Positions 16,140 to 62,590 of a DNA stretch of 64,000 bases are shown here, piece by piece. The stretch is taken from NCBI RefSeq assembly GCF_036365525.1, contig NC_090418.1, forward strand, positions 15,128,248 to 15,192,247, read 5' to 3'. Origin of the DNA: Heterodontus francisci. Its lineage: Eukaryota. Made by a program: the position numbers and the translations under genes. Within the stretch, counting starts at the first letter, position 1, and each line of letters begins with the position of its first letter. Under the pieces are notes generated by a model. It was given only the letters and a program-made list of their open reading frames with translations, was not told the origin of the DNA and did no database searches.

Positions 16140-16455
16140 TCAGCCAATGGGCTTTGAGAGCAGTCGTCTATCTGCCAATGGGCTTTTAGAACGGTCTTCT
16201 CCATCTGCCAATGGGCTTTGAGAGCAGTCGTCTCTATCTGCCAATGGGCTTTTAGAACGGTCTTCTCCATCTGCCAATGGACTTTTAGAGCAGTCTCTTC
16301 CATCTGCCAATGGGCTTTTAGAGCAGTCTTTGCTGTCTGCCAATGGGATTTGGGAACAGCCATTGCCTTCTGCCAATGGGCTTTGAGAACAGTCCATGCT
16401 ACCTGCCAATGGGCTTTGAGAACAGTCTTTTCCATCTGCCAATGGGCTTTGGGAT
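16140..16455 (-). repeat. Coding 33-bp VNTR (DCSQSPLADG-type 11-aa repeat, ~9 copies)
   Basis: TGCCAATGGGCTTT recurs every 33 bp; the last unit is 31 bp. Confidence 0.9.
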
Positions 16456-17401
16456 AAGTCTGCAATGGCTGCTGGTTTCTCATCCTGGCGGCTGTGACCA
16501 GCAGCTGCTGTCAGCAAATCCTGGGGCTGTTTATTTCTGATGTGCATTCGCTGGTGCTGCAGGAGACTGGAGGCCCAGACATAGGCCTTCCCACAGGCAG
16601 AGCAGCGGAAGGGCCGCTCGCCCGTGTGAGTGTGGGCATGCTGCTGGAGATCAGCTGCCCGGACGAAGGCCTTCCCACAGGCGAGGCAGCGGAATGGCCT
16701 TTCACCCGAATGAGTGCGTCGGTGGCGGATAAGGTCAGTGGAACGACGGAACGCCCGGCTGCAGTCAGGGCAGCCATAGGGCCGCTCATCTGAATGGGTG
16801 AGGCGATGCCTCTGCAGGCCAAAGAGTTTGGCAAAGGCACGGCCACAGTTGGAGCAGATGTAGGGCCTCTCGCCCGTGTGAGTGCGCTGGTGCTGCGTCA
16901 GGTCTGAGGACTGGTAGAAAGCCTTACCACACTCAGTGCACTTGTAGCGCCTCTCGCCGGTGTGAGTGTACGTGTGGTGGACCAGGTTGGAGGAATAGGC
17001 AAAGGTCTTCCCGCATTGTGGGCACACATAGGGCCTCTCGCCTGTGTGGGAGCGCTGGTGCTGCTTGAGGTTGGGCAGCTGGGTGAAGGACTTGCCGCAC
17101 TGGCCGCAGGTGTACGGCTTCTCCCCGGTGTGGATGCGGTAGTGCTTCCAGAAGTCCTCTGGCCGGATGAAGGCTTTTCCACACTGGGGGCAAGGGCAGG
17201 GCCGTTCTCCCGTGTGTGAACGTCGGTGCAGATGCAGGCTGGACGAGTGGGTGAAAGCTTTGCCGCAGAAGGTGCAGACATATGGCCGCTCGCCGCTGTG
17301 AGTCCGCAGGTGCTGGATTAGCACCGTCGAGTGGGCGAAGCTCTTCTCACACTGATTGCACTGGAATGGGCGATCCCTGGCCCGGGACAGGCTGCTCACT
17401 C
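16140..17401 (-). CDS. C2H2 zinc-finger protein, main coding exon (10 fingers plus repetitive tail)
   Basis: Ten CxxC-x12-HxxxH fingers with TGERP-type linkers; acceptor TTGTCAG at 17402-17403 in phase 1; stop TGA at 16140; joined CDS is 1269 nt (422 aa). Confidence 0.92.
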
Positions 17402-18496
17402 CTGACAACATACACATACAGAGAAAGGCCAAGCATTAAATCAGCAACCACTGAACAGGAGAGGTGGAGGGGGTGGGAGGGGGAGGAGAGGCAGAGGAGG
17501 AGGGGAGAGGGGAGGCAATAGCCGAGGGCGGGAGAGGGGGGGTGACAGAGTGAGGGGATGCAATGGAGGGGGGCGATGGAGGGAGGGCTTTGGGGGAAGA
17601 ACAACAGGCCAGAGTGAGAGTGTGATGTCATGGGAGAGGGTGATGGAAGGGGGAGATGGACGGGTTTCTCAGTCTCTGGCTGACACTGTATCTCTGGTCA
17701 TCTCACTCTACACATAATCATATCCTCTAGATATTGCTCTGCCTGAAAATCCAAAATTGTCGCCCTGGCCATTCAGATCTCTCGCTCTCTGCTGTGAGAA
17801 TAAAAAAAATACTGAAATGTTGTTTCTACAGCTTGTGGAAAATTACCAAGAAGTCATTTCTGCACAACATAATGAAATCACTGAACAAGGGAACTGATAA
17901 GGGGATGTAAGTAAAGACCTTGAGACAGTACGGCAGTTAAAAATTGTGCTTATGCAGAGAAAAGAAAAACAGCAAGCGTTAGAACAAAGGATGTAGTGAA
18001 TGAGTGAACTGACAGCTGCAAGTTAACACACACACAGGAGGCTTGCAAAAGAATGGAGAGCCAAATAAGGTAAAACAAAAACAAGAGTCAGGGGCTAGAA
18101 AGTTAGAGTAGGGGGAGAAGTAAACAGAGGAGGAGACTGTAGCAACCATAGGATAGGTTAGTGTCATAATATGTTATAACCAATAATGTAAAATAAAGGC
18201 GTGGACAAATGGATTTGTATTGTATAAACATGAACTGAATATGTTGATCGGTGTGCCTGCTTGTAGGACACCCGATCTTGCAAGAACGTTAAATAAACTT
18301 ACTTCTTCAGAGTTTGACTTGGTGTAAATTATTATTAAGTGGGCTACGTTTCTCACAACCCTCAACCACACCCTCCCTCTCACCCCCTCATCATTTATCT
18401 CCCCCTCCCCTTCTCCCGCACCCTTTCCCTCACCATCCCTTATCAACCAACTCCTTATCCCTCAACCCCATTCCTCCGTCACGCTCTCTCCCTCAC

Positions 18497-19513: not shown

Positions 19514-20109
19514 TTATTCATCGGGTCCCTGAACCAACACTCTGCCTGTTATCTGATATTTGACATTCGTCCAGTCTATCACATTGCCTCTCTCTAGCCT
19601 ACTGCACGTTGGCATCTCTGTGTCACGTCGCACCAAATTCCACAGGTTCAAGTCGGTCACTTCTCCCATGAAGCTCTGCTTCTTGGAAAAACCCCCTCCG
19701 ACCTGATCCTGATCTTGCCCCAAAATCACCACCCCTCCGGCCACAACATCTTTCCCCTTGCTGCAAATCTTGGTCACAGTCCGACTACCGTTCACCCAAA
19801 CCCTCGTGTTTCCTGTCTGCGAGTCCCAGGTGACACAAATGGGCATCCATCCCACCAAAGGCCTGCGAATACGGAACTCAACTTGCTCCTCAGCCAAGTG
19901 TAGCCTCAGATTGTCACTGCCCAACCCCAGCAGTAGCTGGTTATGATGAGTACTGGTGGCATAAGAGAAGACAGATACCGTGTCCCGAGCCTCGCTCAAT
20001 ATCTTCATACACAGAGTGAAAGCTTTGAGCGCCATTGGTTGCTTGGGCTCGATGGTGACAAAACTGTTGTCCGTTTGCTCTGGGAAGTTCAAGGATTGAA
20101 GCAGGAGCC
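19514..20109 (-). CDS. Short pentraxin A (CRP/SAP family), pentraxin-domain exon
   Basis: AFTLC, FSYAT, ICVTWDS, LGQDQD..GGGF...QSFMGEVTDLNLW and GNVIDW motifs; acceptor CCACTTCTCTAG at 20110-20111, phase 1. Confidence 0.95.
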
Positions 20110-26170: not shown

Positions 26171-26231
26171 CATCGTTCTGCCCAGCACAGGCGGTCAGGC
26201 AGGCAGCCAAAAGGATCAGCAGCCTCTTCAT
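26171..26231 (-). CDS. Pentraxin A signal-peptide exon (MKRLLILLAACLTACAGQND-G)
   Basis: ATG at 26231, hydrophobic signal peptide, phase-1 donor G|GTAAGG in frame with 20109; acceptor TTGTCACAG at 26241. Confidence 0.88.
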
Positions 26232-26310
26232 CTCCGGTTTCTGTGACAAGTAAAGCGGAGTTCACTGTCCCTGATGACAAAATGCAAGATTTGAGATGTT
26301 GAGACCCTCG

Positions 26311-27146
26311 TACACAGTCTAACCCATACTGATCCAATGTAAACCCTCACACACAGTCTAACCCATACTGATCCAATGTAAACCCACACACACAGTCTAA
26401 CCCATACTGATCCAATGTAAACCCTCACACACAGTCTAACCCATACTGATCCAATGTAAACCCACACACACAGTCTAACCCATACTGATCCAATGTAAAC
26501 CCATACACACAGTCTAACCCATACTGATCCAATGTAAACCCTCACACACAGTCTAACCCATACTGATCCAATGTAAACCCTCACACACAGTCTAACCCAT
26601 ACTGATCCAATGTAAACCCTCACACACAGTCTAACCCATACTGATCCAATGTAAACCCACACACACAGTCTAACCCATACTGATCCAATGTAAACCCATA
26701 CACACAGTCTAACCCATACTGATCCAATGTAAACCCTCACACACAGTCTAACCCATACTGATCCAATGTAAACCCTCACACACAGTCTAACCCATACTGA
26801 TCCAATGTAAACCCACACACACAGTCTAACCCATACTGATCCAATGTAAACCCTCACACACAGTCTAACCCATACTGATCCAATGTAAACCCACACACAC
26901 AGTCTAACCCATACTGATCCAATGTAAACCCACACACACAGTCTAACCCATACTGATCCAATGTAAACCCTCACACACAGTCTAACCCATACTGATCCAA
27001 TGTAAACCCTCACAGACAGTCTAACCCATACTGATCCAATGTAAACCCTCACACACAGTCTAACCCATACTGATCCAATGTAAACCCTCACAGACAGTCT
27101 AACCCATACTGATCCAATGTAAACCCTCACACACAGTCTAACCCAT
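26311..27146. repeat. 39-bp minisatellite, ~21 highly homogeneous copies
   Basis: Unit ACACAGTCTAACCCATACTGATCCAATGTAAACCCTCAC. Confidence 0.97.
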
Positions 27147-50707: not shown

Positions 50708-50777
50708 ATGAACATCTTTCTCCTGATATCCATCGCTTGCCTGGTTACTCCGCTTGTTATTGGTGACAAACGTGAAG
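50708..50777 (+). CDS. Pentraxin B signal-peptide exon (MNIFLLISIACLVTPLVIGDKRE-G)
   Basis: Acceptor CTGACAG at 50701-50702, ATG at 50708, hydrophobic leader, phase-1 donor G|GTAAAT. Confidence 0.88.
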
Positions 50778-50983
50778 GTAAATACACACTTTTATTGTCA
50801 CACTGATTAAAACACACATGGATCTGTAAATAGTCGCACTCACACACTCATCTCAAACATAAGAATTAAATCACTGCTTAATAATCTGTGCTCAAGTCAA
50901 TATGAGCCGTGTCTCTGCAACCCCTGTGGTATTAACCAGAGTGACCCAGTATTCTGACACACTCACCCTGTCTCCCACTGTAG

Positions 50984-51582
50984 GATTAATCGGGGAATCG
51001 CTGCTGTTTCTTTTGAACACGCGGAGTGAGCATGCGGTGCTGGTCCAGAAGAAGGAGATGAGTCTCAATGACCTGACATTGTGCCTGAGATTTAACACCG
51101 AGCTCCGCACTAAGCACACCCTATTCTCCTTCAAATCCAGCACCCCCAGTGATCTGCTGCTGCGCCGGGAGGACGAGAGCACCATGACGGTAAGCTTCAG
51201 CGGCAAGGAGGTTCGATTCCAGCTGCCTGCGAACCTCTGGGGCTGGGTCCACATCTGCACCACCCGGGAAGCGAACAAAGGTCTGGTCAACCTGTACGTC
51301 AATGGGCAGCCCACGGCCCGGAAGACTGTGCGAGGTTCCGCGCCCATCGTAATTCGGGGCAACGTCATCCTGGGCCACGAGGAGGACAGCATCGGGAAGG
51401 ATCCAAATTACGTGGGCGAGTTGATCGATGTCAACCTGTGGGATCGTGTTTTAGCACCCAGAACAATCAACCTCCTCGCGACAGGGGAGTCTAACACTCA
51501 GGGGAACGTCATTGACTGGCTTACCACCAGCATAGAAACCAAAGGAAGCGTTGTTGTCCAAAGATCAACTAAAATTCAGTAA
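50984..51582 (+). CDS. Divergent short pentraxin B, pentraxin-domain exon
   Basis: LTLC, LFSF, WVHICTT, LYVNG, ILGHEED, VGELIDVNLWDRVL and GNVIDW motifs; acceptor CTGTAG at 50982-50983 in phase; AATAAA at 51703. Confidence 0.92.
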
Positions 51583-51842
51583 CCCACATGGTCTTGTCTA
51601 GGGGAATAGTGAGGAGCTCCTTAACACACCCTCCACAAATCAACCATACTGCTCCTGTACACAGTATGGCCCACTTAGTAACACACCTGTGTGTTAATAA
51701 GAAATAAATGCATTTCGCCTCCAATCCTGTCGCCTCATTCTGTTCGGTCGAGTCTGTTATTATCCGCACACTCTCTGAACTCTCACATCTTTCAGGGCTC
51801 ACACGAGACAGCAACTGGAAACAAAACACAATGGCATTTATA

Positions 51843-52415
51843 CATAGAAACATAGAAAATAGGAGCAGGAGTAGGCCATTCGGCCCTTCGAGCCTGCTCC
51901 CCATTCATTATGATCATGGCTGATCATCCAACTCGGTAACCTGTTCCCAATTTCCCCCCATACCCTTCGATTCCTTCAGACCCAAGAGCTATATCTAACT
52001 CCTTCTTGAAAACATACAATGTTTTGGCCTCAACTGCTTTCTGTGGTAGCGAATTCCACAGGCTCACCACTCTCTGGGTGAAGAAATTTCTCCTCATCTC
52101 AGTCCTGAAAGGTTTATCCCATATCCTTAGACTATGACCCCTGGTTCTGGACTCCCCCACCATCGGGAACATCCTTCCTGCATCTACCCTGTCAAGTCCT
52201 GTTAGAATTTTACAGTTTTCTATGAGATCCCCCCTCACTCTTCTGAACTCCAGCGAATATAATCCTAACCGACGTAATCTCTCCTCATACGTCAGTCCCG
52301 CCATCCCAGGAATCAGTCTGGTAAACCTTCGCTGCACTCCCTCTATAGCAAGAACATCCTTCCTCAGACAAGGAGACCAAAACTGCACACAATATTCCAG
52401 GTGTGGCCTCACCAA
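51843..52415 (-). mobile_element. CR1-like LINE 3' end
   Basis: PHLEYCVQFWSP ORF; near-identical to 4532-5100. Confidence 0.92.
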
Positions 52416-53289
52416 TCACATCTTTGAAAACAACAGGATGACACAAGGGGTTACAGTCAGGGAAGTCACCTTGAAGTTTAGTCACTGTTGCAATGAGAGA
52501 AAAGCGGCAGCCAAGTCATGCACAGCAAGATCCCACAGGCAGCAATGAGATAATCTCCAGATTAGCTGATGTTGGAGGGCGGGGGAGGGAGGTCGGGGGA
52601 GAGGGGGCGGGGGAGATGGGTCGGGGGAGATGGGTCGGGGGACAGGGGGAGGGGGGGGCGGGGACAAGGGGGGGGGCGGGGGACATGGGGAGGCGGACGG
52701 GGGACAGGGGGAGAGGGGGCAGGAGACAGGGGGCGGGGGACATGGGGAGGGGGAGAGGGGGACAGGGGAGGGCAGAGTGGGGCGGGGGGGCGGAGTGGGA
52801 CGGGGGGGGACGTGGGGGGAAGGGGGTGGGGGGGGGACAGGGAGGGAGAGAGAGGGAGAGAGAGTGAGTGGTCAAGATCACTACTGACACAATGACATCT
52901 ATCTGGAATACCCTACATTGCTACAAGTGCAAAGGCAAATATTGACCACTTCTGCAAGCAGAAAAATGCCAGATTTCTCTCTAAATCAATGTCCAACATA
53001 TTGAAGAGAAAGTCAATAAATTAATCTTCTCATTTAAAACATCTTGACAAAAATGTCCATTTGTTGCTGATTTGATTCATAGTAACATACATTTTCAATG
53101 ACTTTAACCTTCCAAAATTGTCTCAAGAGCTCTCTAAGCAACTGTAGAACTGTAATCTGCCACCCCTGGCATAAAGGCTTTCCGTTAATGTCTCATCTGA
53201 ATAATAACACCTCTGACAGTGCGGCGCTCCCTCTGTTCTGCTCCCCGAATCGCTGGCCTATTCTTTGGTTCAGACTTTGTCTTCTGCCA

Positions 53290-53400
53290 GTAACAAACAT
53301 GGCGGCCGGTTTGCGTCTGCGCCATTTTTAGTCCTGGCAGCTTCCGGCTCAAGGGCATCCACTTCCGGTTGCGAATTCCGTCCCATTTTCTTCTCGAGAC
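53290..53400 (+). promoter_or_regulatory. SNAPC2: SNAPC2 CpG promoter and non-coding exon 1
   Basis: YY1-like AACATGGCGGC and GCGCCATTTT, ETS CTTCCGG twice, donor GTGAGT at 53401. Confidence 0.7.
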
Positions 53401-53689
53401 GTGAGTAAAACAGAGAGACAGAAGCAGGAGGGGGGTCAGTGGGGAGGGGGGTCAGTGGGGAGGGGGGTCAGAGGAGGATCAGTGGGGGGGGCGGCCGGAA
53501 GAGGAGTAGAGGGAGGGGTCGGAGCAGGAGGAGGGGGTGGTGAGAGGAGGAGGGGGTGGTCAGGAGAGGAGGGGGAGGGGGCTCAGAGCAGGTGGAGGAG
53601 GAGGGGGGTCGGAGGAGGAGAAGGGGGGGTCAGAGGAGGAGAAGGGGGGTCAGAAGAGGAGGAGGAGTGGGTCAGGAGGAGGTGGTGGA

Positions 53690-54900
53690 GGGGGGCGATC
53701 AGAGGAGGTGGATGGGGGGGGTCAGAGGAGGTGGATGGGGGGGTCAGAGGAGGTGGTGGAGGGGGGCGATCAGAGGAGGTGGATGAGGGGGGTCATAGGA
53801 GGTGGATGAGGGGGGTCAGAGGAGGTGGATGGGGGGGGTCAGAGGAGGTGGACGGGGGGGGGTCAGAGGAGGTGGACGGGGGGGGTCAGAGGAGGTGGAC
53901 GGGGGGGGGGGGTCAGAGGAGGTGGACGGGGGGGGGGGTCAGAGGAGGTGGACGGGGGGGGGGGTCAGAGGAGGTGGACGGGGGGGGGTCAGAGGAGGTG
54001 GACGGGGGGGGGGGGGTCAGAGGAGGTGGACGGGGGGGGGTCAGAGGAGGTGGACGGGGGGGGGGGGGTCAGAGGAGGTGGACGGGGGGGGTCAGAGGAG
54101 GTGGACGGGGGGGGTGGTCAGAGGAGGTGGACGGGGGGGGGGGTCAGAGGAGGTGGACGGGGGGGGGGTCAGAGGAGGTGGACGGGGGGGGGGTCAGAGG
54201 AGGTGGACGGGGGGGGGGTCAGAGGAGGTGGACGGGGGGGGTGGTCAGAGGAGGTGGACGGGGGGGGGTCAGAGGAGGTGGACGGGGGGGGGTCAGAGGA
54301 GGTGGACGGGGGGGGGTCAGAGGAGGTGGACGGGGGGGGGTCAGAGGAGGTGGACGGGGGGGGGGGGTCAGAGGAGGTGGACGGGGGGGGGTCAGAGGAG
54401 GTGGACGGGGGGGGGGGGTCAGAGGAGGTGGACGGGGGGGGTCAGAGGAGGTGGACGGGGGGGGGGGTCAGAGGAGGTGGACGGGGGGGGGGTCAGAGGA
54501 GGTGGACGGGGGGGGGTCAGAGGAGGTGGACGGGGGGGGGGTCAGAGGAGGTGGACGGGGGCGGGGGTCAGAGGAGGTGGACGGGGGCGGGGGTCAGAGG
54601 AGGTGGACGGGGGCGGGGGTCAGAGGAGGTGGACGGGGGGAGTCAGAGGAGGTGGACGGGGGGGGTCAGAGGAGGTGGACGGGGGGGGTCAGAGGAGGTG
54701 GACGGGGGGGGTCAGAGGAGGTGGACGGGGGGGGTCAGAGGAGGTGGGGGGGGGTCAGTGGAGGAGGAGGGGGGTCAGAGGAGGAGAAAGGGAGTCAGAG
54801 GAGGAGGAGGGGGGGTCAGAGGAGGTGGAGGGGGGGTCAGAGGAGGTGGAGGGGGGGTCAGAGGAGGTGGAGGGAGGGGTCAGAGGAGGTGGAGGGAGGG
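53690..54900. repeat. G-rich minisatellite (TCAGAGGAGGTGGAC + variable G run) inside a ~2.9-kb purine-rich intron
   Basis: Dozens of tandem units with G runs of ~8-13. Confidence 0.95.
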
Positions 54901-56493
54901 GTCAGAGGAGGAGAAAGGGAGTCACAGGAGGAGGAGGGGGTGTCAGAGGAGGAGGAGGAGGGGGTGTCGGAGGAGGAGGAGGAGGGCGGGGGTCAAGGGA
55001 GGAGGGGGGGTCGGAGGAGGGAGAGGGAGCAGGAGAAAGGGAAGCGAGGGTCGGAGAAAGGGGAGGGGGCTCAGGAGGAGGAGTGGGGTCGGAGAAGGAG
55101 GAGGGGGCTCAGGAGGAGGAGTGGGGGTCAGAGGAGGAGGTGAAGGGTCGGAGTAGGAGGAAAAAGGGGTGGGGGGTCGGAGGAGGAGGAAGGAGGGGGT
55201 GTCGGATGGGGAGGGGGGTCAGAGGAGGAGGGGGATCGGAGGGGGAAAGGGATCAGAGGAAGAGGAGAAGGAGAAGAAGGGGGGTCAGCGGAGGAGGAGG
55301 GGTCAGAGGAGAAGGGCTGGGGGGTCAGAGGAGGAGGAGGGAAAGGGGGTGTCAGAGGAGGGGGAGGGGTGTCAGGAGGAGGAGGGGGGTTGGAAGGGGA
55401 GGAGGGTCGGAGGAGGAGGAGAGGGGTCAGAGGGGGAGGGGTTCGGAGGAGAAGGGGCGGGGGCGGTGGGGGTGAGGAGGAGGAGGGGCAGCGGGGTCAG
55501 GAGGGGGAGAGGGTGGTCATAGGATGTGGGGGGTCATTGGAGGAGAAGGGGGTGTTGCCGGAGGAGGGGAGTCAGAGGAGGGAGGTCAGAGGAGGCGGAC
55601 AAGAAGAGGTCTGGGAGGGGAGGAGGAGGGTGTCCGAGGAGGAGGAGGAGGGGGGTCAGAGGATGAGGTGGGGGAAGGGTCTCAGGAGGAGTAGGGAGTC
55701 AGAGGAGGAGCGGGGGGGTGTCAGACGGAGGAGGAGGGGGGTTTCAGAGGAAGAGGAGGAGAGGGTGGAGGAGGAGTGGGGTTGGAGGGGGAGGGAGGGT
55801 GGGGTCGGATGGGGAGGGAGGGATCGGAGGACGAGGAGGAGGGTCGGGTCGGAGGAGGAGGAGGGAGGTCGGGGAGGGGGTTTGGAGGATGAGGGGGGTT
55901 CGGGAGGAGGAGGGAGGTGCGGTCGGACTGAGGCGGAGGATGCGGGGTTGGACTGGGGAGGAGGAGGGGAGAAAGATGGAGCTGGAGTGGAGATAAACGG
56001 AAGGAGAGGGGAGACGGGGGAAGCGAGAGGGAGCAAGAAAAGAGGGAGTGGGATACAGACTGGGGCAGCGAGACAAACGGGGGGTGGGGGGGGGGGAAAA
56101 GACAGAGAGTGAAGGGGTGAAGGGCAGAAAGGGAGTGAGAGAGAGACGGAGTGTGTGAGAAGCAGAGAGCGAGACACGCAGACAGACAGAAAGGGAGAGA
56201 CCGGCAGACGAAGAGAGAGGGATGGACACACAGAGAGGCAGAGGTAGACGGACAGGGAGGGGGAGCGAGAAACAAGGAGGCAGCGGGAGGGAGCCGGGGC
56301 AAGAGAGAGTGAGAACTCCCTCTCTTGCTCCCCCCGCCATGCCCGCACCCCCTCCCGGCTCCCCTTCCTCTCCTGTCCTCCACTCCTACTGCAGCTCCTC
56401 CTCGCCGCCCACCCCTCTTTCTCCTCTTCTCCCAGGCCTCAACTCTCACTGACTCCCTCCCTCTCTCTCTCCCTCCAGGTACGCTGTGTGGTG

Positions 56494-56700
56494 ATGAAGC
56501 CTCCTGTCAGGGCCCGAGCTGCCCCTCGCCGTTATGGGGTGGATTTGGCAAAACAGTGGATGGAGATCGACAGTGAGATTGCTGATTGGACGGTTAGAGA
56601 CAAGCGCCTGCTGCTCCGAGCACTGATGAGGCAGAGTGCATCCAGGGAACCCGACCTCAGCAGCATTGAGAGGGCAGTGCCCGGGAAGAATCGGGAGGAG
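56494..56700 (+). CDS. SNAPC2: snRNA-activating protein complex subunit 2, first coding exon
   Basis: MKPPVRARAAPRRY...WTVRDKRLLLRAL...EPD...GKNREE resembles the vertebrate SNAPC2 N-terminus (MKPPPRRRAAPARY...WSAREKRQL); acceptor at 56477-56478; phase-0 donor at 56701. Confidence 0.88.
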
Positions 56701-57299: not shown

Positions 57300-59732
57300 T
57301 CTATACTGACTGGGAGTTATACTGCAGATTGTCACACTGACAGGGAGTTATACTGCAGCCTGCGTCACACTGACTGGGAGTTATACTGCAGGCTGTGTCA
57401 CACTGACTGGGAGTTATACTGCAGGCTGTGTCACGCTGACTGGGAGTTATACTGCAGCCTGTGTCACACTGACCGTGAGTTATACTGCAGGCTGTGTCAC
57501 ACTGACTGGGAGTTATACTGCAGGCTGTGTCACACTGACCGGGAGTTATACTGCAGGCTGTGTCACACTGACTGGGAGTTATACTGCAGGCTGTGTCACA
57601 CTGACTGGGAGTTATACTGCAGCCTGCGTCACACTGACCGTGAGTTACACTGCAGGCTGCGTCACACTGACTGGGAGTTATACTGCAGCCTGTGTCACAC
57701 TGACCGTGAGTTATACTGCAGGCTGTGTCACACTGACTGGGAGTTATACTGCAGGCTGTGTCACACTGACCGTGAGTTATACTGCAGGCTGTGTCACACT
57801 GACCGTGAGTTATACTGCAGGCTGCGTCACACTGACTGGGAGTTATACTGCAGGCTGTGTCACACTGACTGGGAGTTATACTGCAGATTGTCACACTGAC
57901 CGTGAATTATACTGCAGGCTGCGTCACACTGACCGTGAGTTATACTGCAGGCTGCGTCACACTGACTGGGAGTTATACTGCAGGCTGTGTCACACTGACT
58001 GAGAGTTATACTGCAGGCTGTGTCACACTGACTGGGAGTTATACTGCAGGCTGTGTCACACTGACAGGGAGTTATACTGCAGGCTGTGTCACACTGACTG
58101 GGAGTTATACTGCAGGCTGTGTCACACTGAGTGGGAGTTATACTGCAGGTTGTGTCACACTGACTGGGAGTTATACTGCAGGCTGTGTCACACTGACAGG
58201 GAGTTATACTGCAGGCTGTGTCACACTGACTGGGAGTTATACTGCAGGCTGTGTCACACTGACTGGGAGTTATACTGCAGGCTGTGTCACACTGAGTGGG
58301 AGTTATACTGCAGGCTGTGTCACACTGACTGGGAGTTATACTGCAGGCTGTGTCACACTGACTGGGAGTTATACTGCAGGCTGTGTCACACTGACAGGGA
58401 GTTATACTGCAGGCTGTGTCACACTGACTGGGAGTTATACTGCAGGCTGTGTCACACTGACTGGGAGTTATACTGCAGGCTGTGTCACACTGACTGGGAG
58501 TTATACTGCAGGCTGTGTCACACTGACTGGGAGTTATACTGCAGGCTGTGTCACACTGACAGGGAGTTATACTGCAGGCTGTGTCACACTGACTGGGAGT
58601 TATACTGCATGCTGCATCACACTGACCGTGAGTTATACTGCAGGCTGCGTCACACTGACCGGGAGTTATACTGCAGGCTGCGTCACACTGACTGGGAGTT
58701 ATACTGCAGGCTGTGTCACACTGACTGGGAGTTATACTGCAGGCTGTGTCACACTGACTGGGAGTTATACTGCAGGCTGTGTCACACTGTCGGATTTGTT
58801 TTGCAGGCTGTGTCACACTGACAGGGAGTTACACTGCAGGCTGTGTCACACTGACTGGGAGTTATACTGCAGGCTGTGTCACACTGACTGGGAGTTATAC
58901 TGCAGGCTGTGTCACACTGACAGGGAGTTATGCTGCAGGCTGTGTCACACTGACTGGGAGTTATACTGCAGGCTGTGTCACACTGTCGGATTTGTTTTGC
59001 AGGCTGTGTCACACTGACAGGGAGTTATACTGCAGGCTGTGTCACACTGTCGGATTTGTATTGCAGGCTGTGTCACACTGACTGGGAGTTATACTGCAGG
59101 CTGTGTCACACTGACCGTGAGTTATACTGCAGGCTGCGTCACACTGACCGTGAGTTATACTGCAGGCTGCGTCACACTGACGGATTTGTATTGCAGGCTG
59201 TGTCACACTGACAGGGAGTTATACTGCAGGCTGCGTCACACTGACCTTGAGTTATACTGCAGGCTGCGTCACACTGACGGAGTTACACTGCAGGCTGTGT
59301 CACACTGACAGGGAGTTATACTGCAGGCTGTGTCACACTGACGGAGTTACACTGCAGGCTGCGTCACACTGACGGAGTTATACTGCAGGCTGCGTCACAC
59401 TGACGGAGTTATACTGCAGGCTGTGTCACACTGACAGGGAGTTATACTCCAGGCTATGTCACACTGACAGGGAGTTATACTGCAGGCTGTGTCACACTGA
59501 CAGGGAGTTATACTGCAGGCTGCGTCACACTGACGGAGTTATACTGCAGGCTGCGTCACACTGACGGAGTTATACTGCAGGCTGTGTCACACTGACAGGG
59601 AGTTGTACTGCAGGCTGCGTCACACTGACAGGGAGTTATACTGCAGGCTGCGTCACACTGACTGGGAGTTATACTGCAGCTGTGTCACACTGACAGGGAG
59701 TTATACTGCAGGCTGCGTCACACTGACGGAGC
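57300..59732. repeat. 33-bp minisatellite (~74 copies, with 31-bp variants)
   Basis: Unit GGGAGTTATACTGCAGGCTGTGTCACACTGACT. Confidence 0.97.
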
Positions 59733-60494: not shown

Positions 60495-62590
60495 CTTTCT
60501 TATTGATTCGTAGGATTTTGGCGTCGTTGGCCACACCAGCATTTATTGCCCATCCGTAATGCCCTTGAGAAGGTGGTGGTGAGCTGCTATCTTGAACTGC
60601 TGCAGTCCGTGTGGGGTAGGTACACCCACAGTGCTGTTTGAAAGGGAGTTCCAGGATTTTGACCCAGCGACATTGAATCAACTGCAATATAGTTCCAAGT
60701 CAGGATGGTGTGTGGCTTGGAGGGGAACTTGCAGGTGGTGGTGTTTCCACACATCTGCTGCCCTTGTCCTTCTAGGTGGTAGAGGTCGCGGGTTTGGAAG
60801 ATGCTTTGGAAGGAGTCTTGGTCAGTTGCCGCAGTGCATCTTGTAGATTGCGCACACTGCTGCTACTGGTGAATGGGGTTCCAATCAAGTGGGCTGCTGT
60901 GTCCTGGATAGTGTTGAATCTCTTGAGTGTTGTTGGAGCTGCACCAATCCAGGCAAGTGGAGGGTATTCCATTAAACTCCTGACTAGTGCCTTGTAGATC
61001 ATGGCTAGGCATTGGGGAGTCAGGATGGGAATTACTCACTGCAGAATTCCCAGCCTCTGACCTGTTCTTGTAGCCACAGCATTTACGTAGCTGGTTCAGT
61101 TCAGTTTCTGGTCAGTGGTAACCCCAGGATGTTGATGGTGAGGAATTCAGCAATGTTAATGCCATTGAACATCAAGGGGAGATGGTTAGATTCTCTCTTG
61201 TTTATGATGATCATTGCCTGGCACCTGTGTGGCACGAATGTCACTTGCCACCTGTATCAGCCCAAGCCTGGGTGTTGTTCGGGTCTTGCTGCATTTCGAC
61301 ATGGACTACTTCATTATCTGAGGAAGGAAATAAATAAAATCAAGAAATGCTGTAAATACTCAGCAGGTCTGGCAGCATCTGTGGAAAGAGAAGCAGAGTT
61401 ATACTGCAGGCTGTGTCACACTGACAGGGAGTTATACTGCAGGCTGTGTCACACTGTCGGATTTGTATTGCAGGCTGTGTCACACTGACTGAGAGTTATA
61501 CTGCAGGCTGTGTCACACTGTCGGATTTGTATTGCAGGCTGTGTCACACTGACAGGGAGTTATACTGCAGGCTGTGTCACACTGACTGGGAGTTATACTG
61601 CAGGCTGTGTCACACTGACTGGGAGTTATACTGCAGGCTGTGTCACACTGACAGGGAGTTATACTGCAGGCTGTGTCACACTGACTGGGAGTTATACTGC
61701 AGGCTGTGTCACACTGACAGGGAGTTATACTGCAGGCTGTGTCACACTGACTGGGAGTTATACTGCAGGCTGTGTCACACTGTCGGATTTGTATTGCAGG
61801 CTGTGTCACACTGACAGGGAGTTATACTGCAGGCTGTGTCACACTGACTGGGAGTTATACTGCAGGCTGCGTCACACTGACCGTGAGTTATACTGCAGGC
61901 TGTGTCACACTGACGGAGTTATACTGCAGGCTGTGTCACACTGACTGGGAGTTATACTGCAGGCTGTGTCACACTGACTGGGAGTTATACTGCAGGCTGT
62001 GTCACACTGACTGGGAGTTATACTGCAGGCTGTGTCACACTGACTGGGAGTTATACTGCAGGCTGTGTCACACTGACTGGGAGTTATACTGCAGGCTGTG
62101 TCACACTGTCGGATTTGTATTGCAGGCTGTGTCACACTGACAGGGAGTTATACTGCAGGCTGTGTCACACTGACTGGGAGTTATACTGCAGGCTGTGTCA
62201 CACTGACAGAGTTTTTATTTCAGATCTCCAGCATATGCAGTATTTGGCTTTTATTTCGGTATCTGAGGCATTGTGAATGCTGCTGAACATTGTGCAATCA
62301 TCAGCGAACATCCCTGCTTCTGACGTGATTAAAGGAAGGTCATTGATGAAACAGCTGAAGATGGTTGGGCCTCGGACACTACTCTGAGGAACTCCTGCTG
62401 TGATGTCTTGGAGTTCAGATGATTGACCTCCAACAACACCACCTCTTCTTTGATGCTAGGTGTGATCAGTGGAGAGTTTTCCCCCGATTCCTGTTGACTC
62501 CTGTTTTGCTGCTGGATGCCACACTCGTTCAAATGCTGCCTTGATGTCAAGGGCAGTCACTCTCACCTCACCTCTGGAGTTCAGTTCTTT
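60495..62590 (-). mobile_element. tRNA-headed LINE family 3' part, interrupted at 61324-62259
   Basis: IYKALVRSLMEY motif; LINE sequence resumes at 62260. Confidence 0.85.
61396..62211. repeat. Second block of the 33-bp minisatellite (~25 copies)
   Basis: Same unit and the same CGGATTTGTATTG variant as 57300-59732. Confidence 0.97.

Follow-up and report, generated by a model that had tools for sequence, protein, structure and literature searches.

The window analysed here, a stretch of 64,000 nucleotides from contig NC_090418.1 of the horn shark Heterodontus francisci, encodes on its plus strand a two-exon pentraxin gene, which we call pentraxin B. Exon 1 (50708..50777, 70 nt, 23 codons plus 1 nt) encodes a signal-peptide-like segment equal to the N-terminus of XP_067880118.1. 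It is followed by a phase-1 GT-AG intron of 206 nt (50778..50983), by exon 2, which carries the complete pentraxin domain and the stop codon (50984..51582), and by a poly(A) signal AATAAA (51703..51708), all on the plus strand. The spliced product of 222 amino acids plus stop is identical to RefSeq protein XP_067880118.1, 'serum amyloid P-component-like'; the gene is thus already annotated, as SAP-like. Its N-terminus is hydrophobic (hydropathy up to 3.1 in 9-residue windows), from which we infer that the protein is secreted. The Pfam Pentaxin family (PF00354) matches it with an E-value of 6.8e-36 and 124.2 bits against a curated cut-off of 25. The architecture is that of a short pentraxin of about 25 kDa, a signal-peptide-like leader and one domain without N-terminal extension, and the protein sits among short pentraxins in a tree of 58 rows. 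Residues C57 and C115 correspond to C36 and C97 of human CRP, a cysteine pair that is invariant in 23 of 23 aligned rows. An earlier note on this DNA had reported an intact frame of 222 residues, canonical splice sites, the cysteine pair and the poly(A) signal, and all of these are confirmed on the sequence. Pentraxin B is single-copy in the horn shark genome, where the 11 other matches are only 24-34% identical, and the ESM Atlas returned generic pentraxin clusters only. A leaderless form starting at an in-frame intronic ATG (50902) was considered and dropped: in organism B, a close relative, a T>G change at 50903 destroys this ATG.

A linked paralogue, pentraxin A, was recognized by Pfam and alignment on the minus strand (exon 1, 26171..26231; exon 2, 19514..20109); the two genes are about 24.5 kb apart and face away from one another. 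The neighbor on the other side is a SNAPC2-like gene with a coding exon at 56494..56700 (+; Pfam SNAPC2, E 2.5e-07, 31.6 bits, cut-off 25.5). A CpG-rich stretch at 53230-53410 of the window is probably a two-way promoter before this gene; it contains facing ATGGCG motifs, which we take to be YY1-like, and is crossed by one contig of run X5. Contigs also reveal a spliced antisense RNA on the minus strand. Its upstream exon (53091..53240, extended to 53402 by an X5 contig) adjoins the CpG-rich SNAPC2-side promoter, its GT-AG intron covers 1276 nt (51815..53090; joint 51814-53091 with CT..AC ends, runs X2 and X5), and its last exon (50801..51814, 3' end approximate) lies over the pentraxin coding exon. 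The same intron is used in the horn shark and in the close relative, in runs whose RNA origin is a guess rather than a recorded property (7 of the 11 runs are guessed to be RNA). A minus-strand AATAAA is found at about position 50796, just beyond the contig ends. Because the last antisense exon spans the pentraxin coding exon, coverage of exon 2 in X2 and X5 does not count as pentraxin mRNA; contigs show presence only, and in runs X1, X2, X3, X5, X8 and X10 none lies over exon 1 or bridges the intron between 50777 and 50984.

Pentraxin B was aligned to human CRP as given in PDB entry 1b09. According to the available text of PMC6503050, CRP coordinates calcium through D60, N61, E138, Q139, D140, E147 and Q150, and its phosphocholine residues are F66 and E81. 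The ligand segment around D60/N61 is replaced by FKSSTPSD (51130..51153, +), with D60, N61 and E62 opposite P78, S79 and D80 and a one-residue gap. The signature, HICTSWES in CRP, reads HICTTREA (51250..51273, +), so that W100 corresponds to R118 (codon 51265-51267); the family signature HxCxS/TWxS is absent, and neither its Trp nor S102 occurs in any of the eight intact members of the clade described below. The second calcium loop, LGHEEDSIGKDPNYVGE (51370..51420, +), lies opposite LGQEQDSFGGNFEGSQSLVGD of CRP with a gap of four residues, and Q150 falls on P164. The three changes to which the earlier note had drawn attention, namely the Trp-to-Arg substitution, the replaced D60/N61 segment and a loop shorter by four residues without Q150, are therefore real features of the alignment. 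That note did not mention E156 and D158, the equivalents of E138 and D140, which are still present and are the only two of the seven calcium ligands that the horn shark protein retains. In the phosphocholine pocket F66 is replaced by R84, and E81 is kept as E99. R84 begins a charged patch, R84-R85-E86-D87 (51163..51174, +), which lies at CRP 66-69 and is conserved in the clade.

Orthologues of pentraxin B were found in Mustelus, Cetorhinus, Pristis, Callorhinchus, Scyliorhinus torazame, Narcine, Mobula, Heptranchias and Hypanus. Together with the horn shark sequence these ten proteins form one clade with an SH-aLRT value of 99 in the 58-row tree, a quick reconstruction in which long rows were trimmed to their last 225 residues and a few outgroup rows were mis-trimmed. 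In a more careful tree of 32 rows, from which two degenerate ray models were excluded, the eight intact members are recovered with support of 100/99, and the chimaera protein branches outside the elasmobranch members. This position indicates that the pentraxin B branch predates the split between chimaeras and sharks, which took place about 400 million years ago. Horn shark pentraxin B is 54-68% identical to the intact orthologues of six other elasmobranch genera and 41% identical to that of the chimaera. It diverges much like pentraxin A: identities to the catshark, Heptranchias, Pristis and Narcine orthologues are 65, 55, 58 and 55% for pentraxin B, and 74, 60, 58 and 58% for pentraxin A. Residues fixed specifically in the clade include D53, L54, R85, E86, D87, L108, W109, V112, R118 and Y128 (horn shark numbering); E86 is replaced only in one chimaera sequence, by a change private to that record, and the other 14 chimaera records compared have Glu. 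Pentraxin B was not found in skates or carpet sharks, nor a chimaera orthologue of pentraxin A, in searches that were word-limited or used one protein per 50% cluster. The clade groups with teleost group II-like rows in the 58-row tree (SH-aLRT 92), a grouping not recovered in the 32-row tree.

The chimaera orthologue is represented by 29 near-identical records that differ mostly by single private changes, and 14 of the 15 listed bear AFM or AFK accessions. We infer that these are cDNA clones, and we take them to come from the elephant shark full-length cDNA set. If that link holds, there is at least one tissue in which pentraxin B is well expressed. The set comprises 6,778 full-length cDNAs from six tissues, and the available portion of its description does not mention pentraxins (PMC3466250).

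Loss of the site is a property of the clade as a whole. The eight intact members were set against 42 further short pentraxins, a selection made among about 240 proteins and the horn shark paralogues; five long-type rows were excluded, and some of the rows used are near copies. Trp100 (CRP numbering) occurs in none of the eight (Arg in seven, Tyr in one) versus 41 of 42, Asn61 in none versus 38 of 42, Gln137 in two versus all 42, Asp140 in four versus all 42, and Gln150 in two versus 40. All nine elasmobranch members have a second calcium loop shortened by four residues. The chimaera protein retains the full-length loop and has nevertheless lost N61, D140 and Q150; the deletion therefore came later than the other changes to the site. 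The possibility raised with the earlier note, that orthologues might keep the Trp and the full loop, is thus answered in the negative, with no Trp in any of the eight intact ones and no full loop in any elasmobranch member, and the description 'highly aberrant' holds for an entire old subfamily and is not special to the horn shark allele.

The calcium loops are the least conserved parts of pentraxin B, with mean pairwise identities among the eight members of 23% (loop 1) and 31% (loop 2) against 53% for the whole domain. In the five pentraxin A orthologues they are among the most conserved parts (67% and 83%, domain 60%). Since both loops drift faster than the remainder of pentraxin B, the site appears to have been freed from constraint and lost, not rebuilt. 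A 'remodelled' site, as the earlier note had put it, does not fit this pattern, and the same variability disfavours a rebuilt and conserved metal site; what stands of the earlier interpretation is a functional, non-canonical pentraxin. Judged from these sequences, pentraxin B is likely calcium-independent. It might still be a calcium-dependent lectin for some other ligand, using a weak or shifted single site formed by E156, D158 and D163. E156 and D158 are shared by horn shark and catshark, and position 163 is acidic in seven of the eight members, so that weak binding of one ion is conceivable; E99 is likewise acidic in seven of eight, and the pentraxin domain of CA6, which is pentameric and keeps its calcium residues in part, provides a precedent for partial conservation (available text of PMC5723433). 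However, the D140 position is Gly in four of the eight members, the E138 position is Gln, Arg or Gly in four, the second loop of Heptranchias (RGAGS...GQN) is free of acidic residues, and the high variability of both loops is unlike that of any conserved new site. We therefore regard a residual calcium lectin as improbable.

The gene is under purifying selection. Contigs of the close relative show 14 listed coding differences from pentraxin B, six of which change an amino acid and eight of which are silent; these give a dN/dS of about 0.24 (p 0.009), and two further, unlisted differences widen the range to 0.19-0.32 (the upper value, with p 0.035, applies if both alter the protein). A ratio near 1, which the earlier note had named among the outcomes that would speak against its reading, is not seen, and the codon of R118 itself differs silently between the two species. 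An antisense frame of 166 codons shares the wobble positions of pentraxin B codons, which makes long-range protein conservation a stronger argument for constraint than dN/dS. In this antisense frame the 17 base changes alter 10 residues, and we treated it as a likely shadow frame. A private decaying allele was rejected in view of the intact orthologues without Trp and the low dN/dS, and the marks of a pseudogene are absent, as the frame is unbroken and dN/dS lies well away from 1.

A weaker form of decay would have pentraxin B barely used in the horn shark, its frame having survived by chance or through the antisense RNA that overlaps it. Spliced antisense RNA does lie over the coding exon in two species, and two ray models are degenerate: those of Mobula (P0023) and Hypanus (P0112) lack at least one core strand as well as the signal peptide, and that of Hypanus also lacks the second cysteine. 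These models may reflect either gene loss in these rays, where pentraxin B would then perhaps be dispensable, or faulty gene prediction; they have in common an odd N-terminus and internal deletions. Against decay in the horn shark stand the intact orthologues from six elasmobranch genera to the chimaera, the clade-specific invariant residues, the dN/dS range given above, and an antisense frame that matches no Pfam family. Taken together, these observations make it very improbable that the gene is decaying or idle.

An AlphaFold model of pentraxin B, computed from an alignment of 23 rows that include canonical pentraxins, adopts the pentraxin fold with a pLDDT of 87. Its best matches are SAP and CRP (Z 28.3 and 28.0, rmsd 1.9 Å, TM 0.80-0.82), followed by other structures with Z 22-25.5, among them PTX3 (Z 25.5). 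In CRP the subunit contacts are made by three elements, loops 40-42 and 115-123 and strand 197-202 (available text of PMC5784126); contact segments are also given in the accessible part of PMC10594506. The loop N61-T62-E63 of pentraxin B, which corresponds to CRP 40-42, is 92% identical among its members, compared with 47% in pentraxin A. N61, E63, P133, R136 and K137 (the last three equivalent to CRP P115, R118 and K119) and E169 (CRP D155) are present in all eight members. Taken as wholes, loop 115-123 and strand 197-202 are 49% and 40% conserved (domain 53%), no better than the domain, which leaves single fixed residues as the grounds for proposing a ring. With these contacts kept, pentraxin B would probably assemble into a ring. 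Instead, it could bind proteins as a monomer or in some other non-ring form, as a module of matrix or mucus without an immune role. Pentraxin domains occur in such settings in PTX3, neuronal pentraxins and ADGRG4, and the poorly conserved 197-202 strand has lost K201 in all eight members. Yet the model lies closest to the ring-forming SAP and CRP, and the invariant residues listed above fall within subunit-contact segments, which leads us to consider a non-ring module distinctly improbable.

Another possible role, already raised in the earlier note as a hetero-oligomer with pentraxin A, is that of a calcium-blind subunit which would form mixed rings with the calcium-competent pentraxin A and thereby determine their valency or the effector face they present. 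Besides lying close together and pointing outwards, A and B have orthologues with matching longest contigs in Scyliorhinus, Pristis and Narcine, and the chimaera CRP1 and CRP2 accessions are consecutive. In the best tree A and B fall on one side of a branch, with support of only 80/41. Pentraxin A has N61, D138, Q139, D140 and Q150 equivalents in all five orthologues; all five lack the CRP residues R118 and P115, both of which are present in all eight pentraxin B members. Linkage, however, would be expected from an old local duplication, and the loss of CRP R118 in A needs no partner, as this residue is also missing in 19 of the 42 other short pentraxins. Pentraxin B possesses both halves of the R118-D155 pair, which we presume to be a subunit-contact pair of CRP and which would suffice for a ring built from B alone, and hetero-oligomeric fish pentraxins are not described in the literature searched. 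Mixed rings thus seem unlikely to us, though the chance is not negligible. A combined reading would have A and B form a unit older than the chimaera-shark split, assembled into mixed rings in which calcium-blind B supplies a calcium-free face (R85-E86-D87, E99 and the LWGWV segment) together with the contacts lost by A, with antisense RNA from the divergent SNAPC2 promoter holding B low outside its own tissue. We think it rather unlikely that all of these elements hold together. It is noticeable that the signature of pentraxin A, WMPICVTWDS, has Pro in place of His in all five orthologues.

On balance, we are inclined to view pentraxin B as a secreted, likely calcium-independent and probably ring-forming pentraxin that binds a putative partner, a reading which in our estimation stands somewhat above an even chance and which is drawn from sequence comparison. 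According to this reading, an old branch of cartilaginous-fish short pentraxins lost the key calcium ligands of CRP and came to fold and act without calcium. Such folding would require compensation, since human CRP mutants of the calcium site, D60A and E147A excepted, are not secreted from COS-7 cells (available text of PMC5784126). Compensation may have come from changes near the signature: W100R is probably accompanied by A32D, F33L and W110Y (CRP numbering). These residues presumably touch, as judged from strand pairing. Folding without the ion would then be made possible by the loop deletion together with the linked core changes, the kept contacts N61-T62-E63, P133/R136/K137 and E169 would hold the ring, and the clade-specific R85-E86-D87 patch, E99 and the LWGWV segment would form a charged and aromatic calcium-free binding surface. 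The protein might serve in innate humoral defence, where it would act like PTX3 and not like CRP.

Known pentraxins resemble pentraxin B in part. With CRP and SAP (PF00354; 1b09, 1sac) it shares the two-exon gene, signal peptide, single domain, C36-C97 pair, fold and several contact residues; unlike them, it lacks equivalents of D60, N61 and Q150, has Arg for F66 and W100, and carries a second calcium loop that is four residues shorter and unconstrained. PTX3 likewise has a pentraxin domain without the calcium pocket and binds independently of calcium (available text of PMC12753419). PTX3 has a long N-terminal region and belongs to a distant branch, whereas pentraxin B is short and lost the site independently. 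Among fish pentraxins, elephant shark 'CRP2' (XP_007883123) falls within the cluster of the chimaera orthologue and appears in the tree of Lee et al. 2017, who placed the elephant shark CRPs in group II, so that the chimaera member of our clade is a listed group II sequence; the available main text of that study contains no mention of calcium and distinguishes no separate branch for pentraxin B (PMC5446266). Secreted cartilaginous-fish pentraxins include the serum CRP of Mustelus canis (dogfish) and a skin-mucus pentraxin of skate. The former binds phosphocholine in a calcium-dependent manner (available text of PMC6503050), which fits the canonical paralogues and not pentraxin B. Pentraxin B is not described in the available portions of PMC9207270, PMC10707392, PMC6795676, PMC13698038 and PMC11979771, and no account of the lost calcium site in this branch was found in the literature searched, with subscription journals mostly outside reach.

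Calcium-dependent ligand binding is the defining property of short pentraxins, and human CRP depends on its calcium site even for folding and secretion (available text of PMC5784126). Pentraxin B would therefore offer a natural test of ring function apart from the lectin site and of fold maturation without calcium. Such a protein is no more than moderately surprising, since a full calcium site is already dispensable in PTX3 and in other pentraxin domains. There is also a practical consequence, as the shark 'CRP-like' and 'SAP-like' labels used for acute-phase biomarkers include at least one gene that is unlikely to behave as CRP.

Elsewhere in the horn shark genome, loci L003, L004 (G000:C17), L005 (C31) and L006 (C8) are canonical short-pentraxin paralogues with N61, E138, D140 and Q150 intact; L003 and L004 form a young pair separated by 20 kb, and locus L008 we take to be PTX3-like. 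In the neighboring stretches L013 and L014 no nameable gene was seen. The window also contains a C2H2 zinc-finger exon on the minus strand (16140-17435) with about ten fingers followed by short degenerate peptide repeats. Long simple tandem arrays occupy introns and flanks at 26228-27145, 53400-56400, 57300-59000 and 61400-62300, where they give rise to long meaningless open frames.
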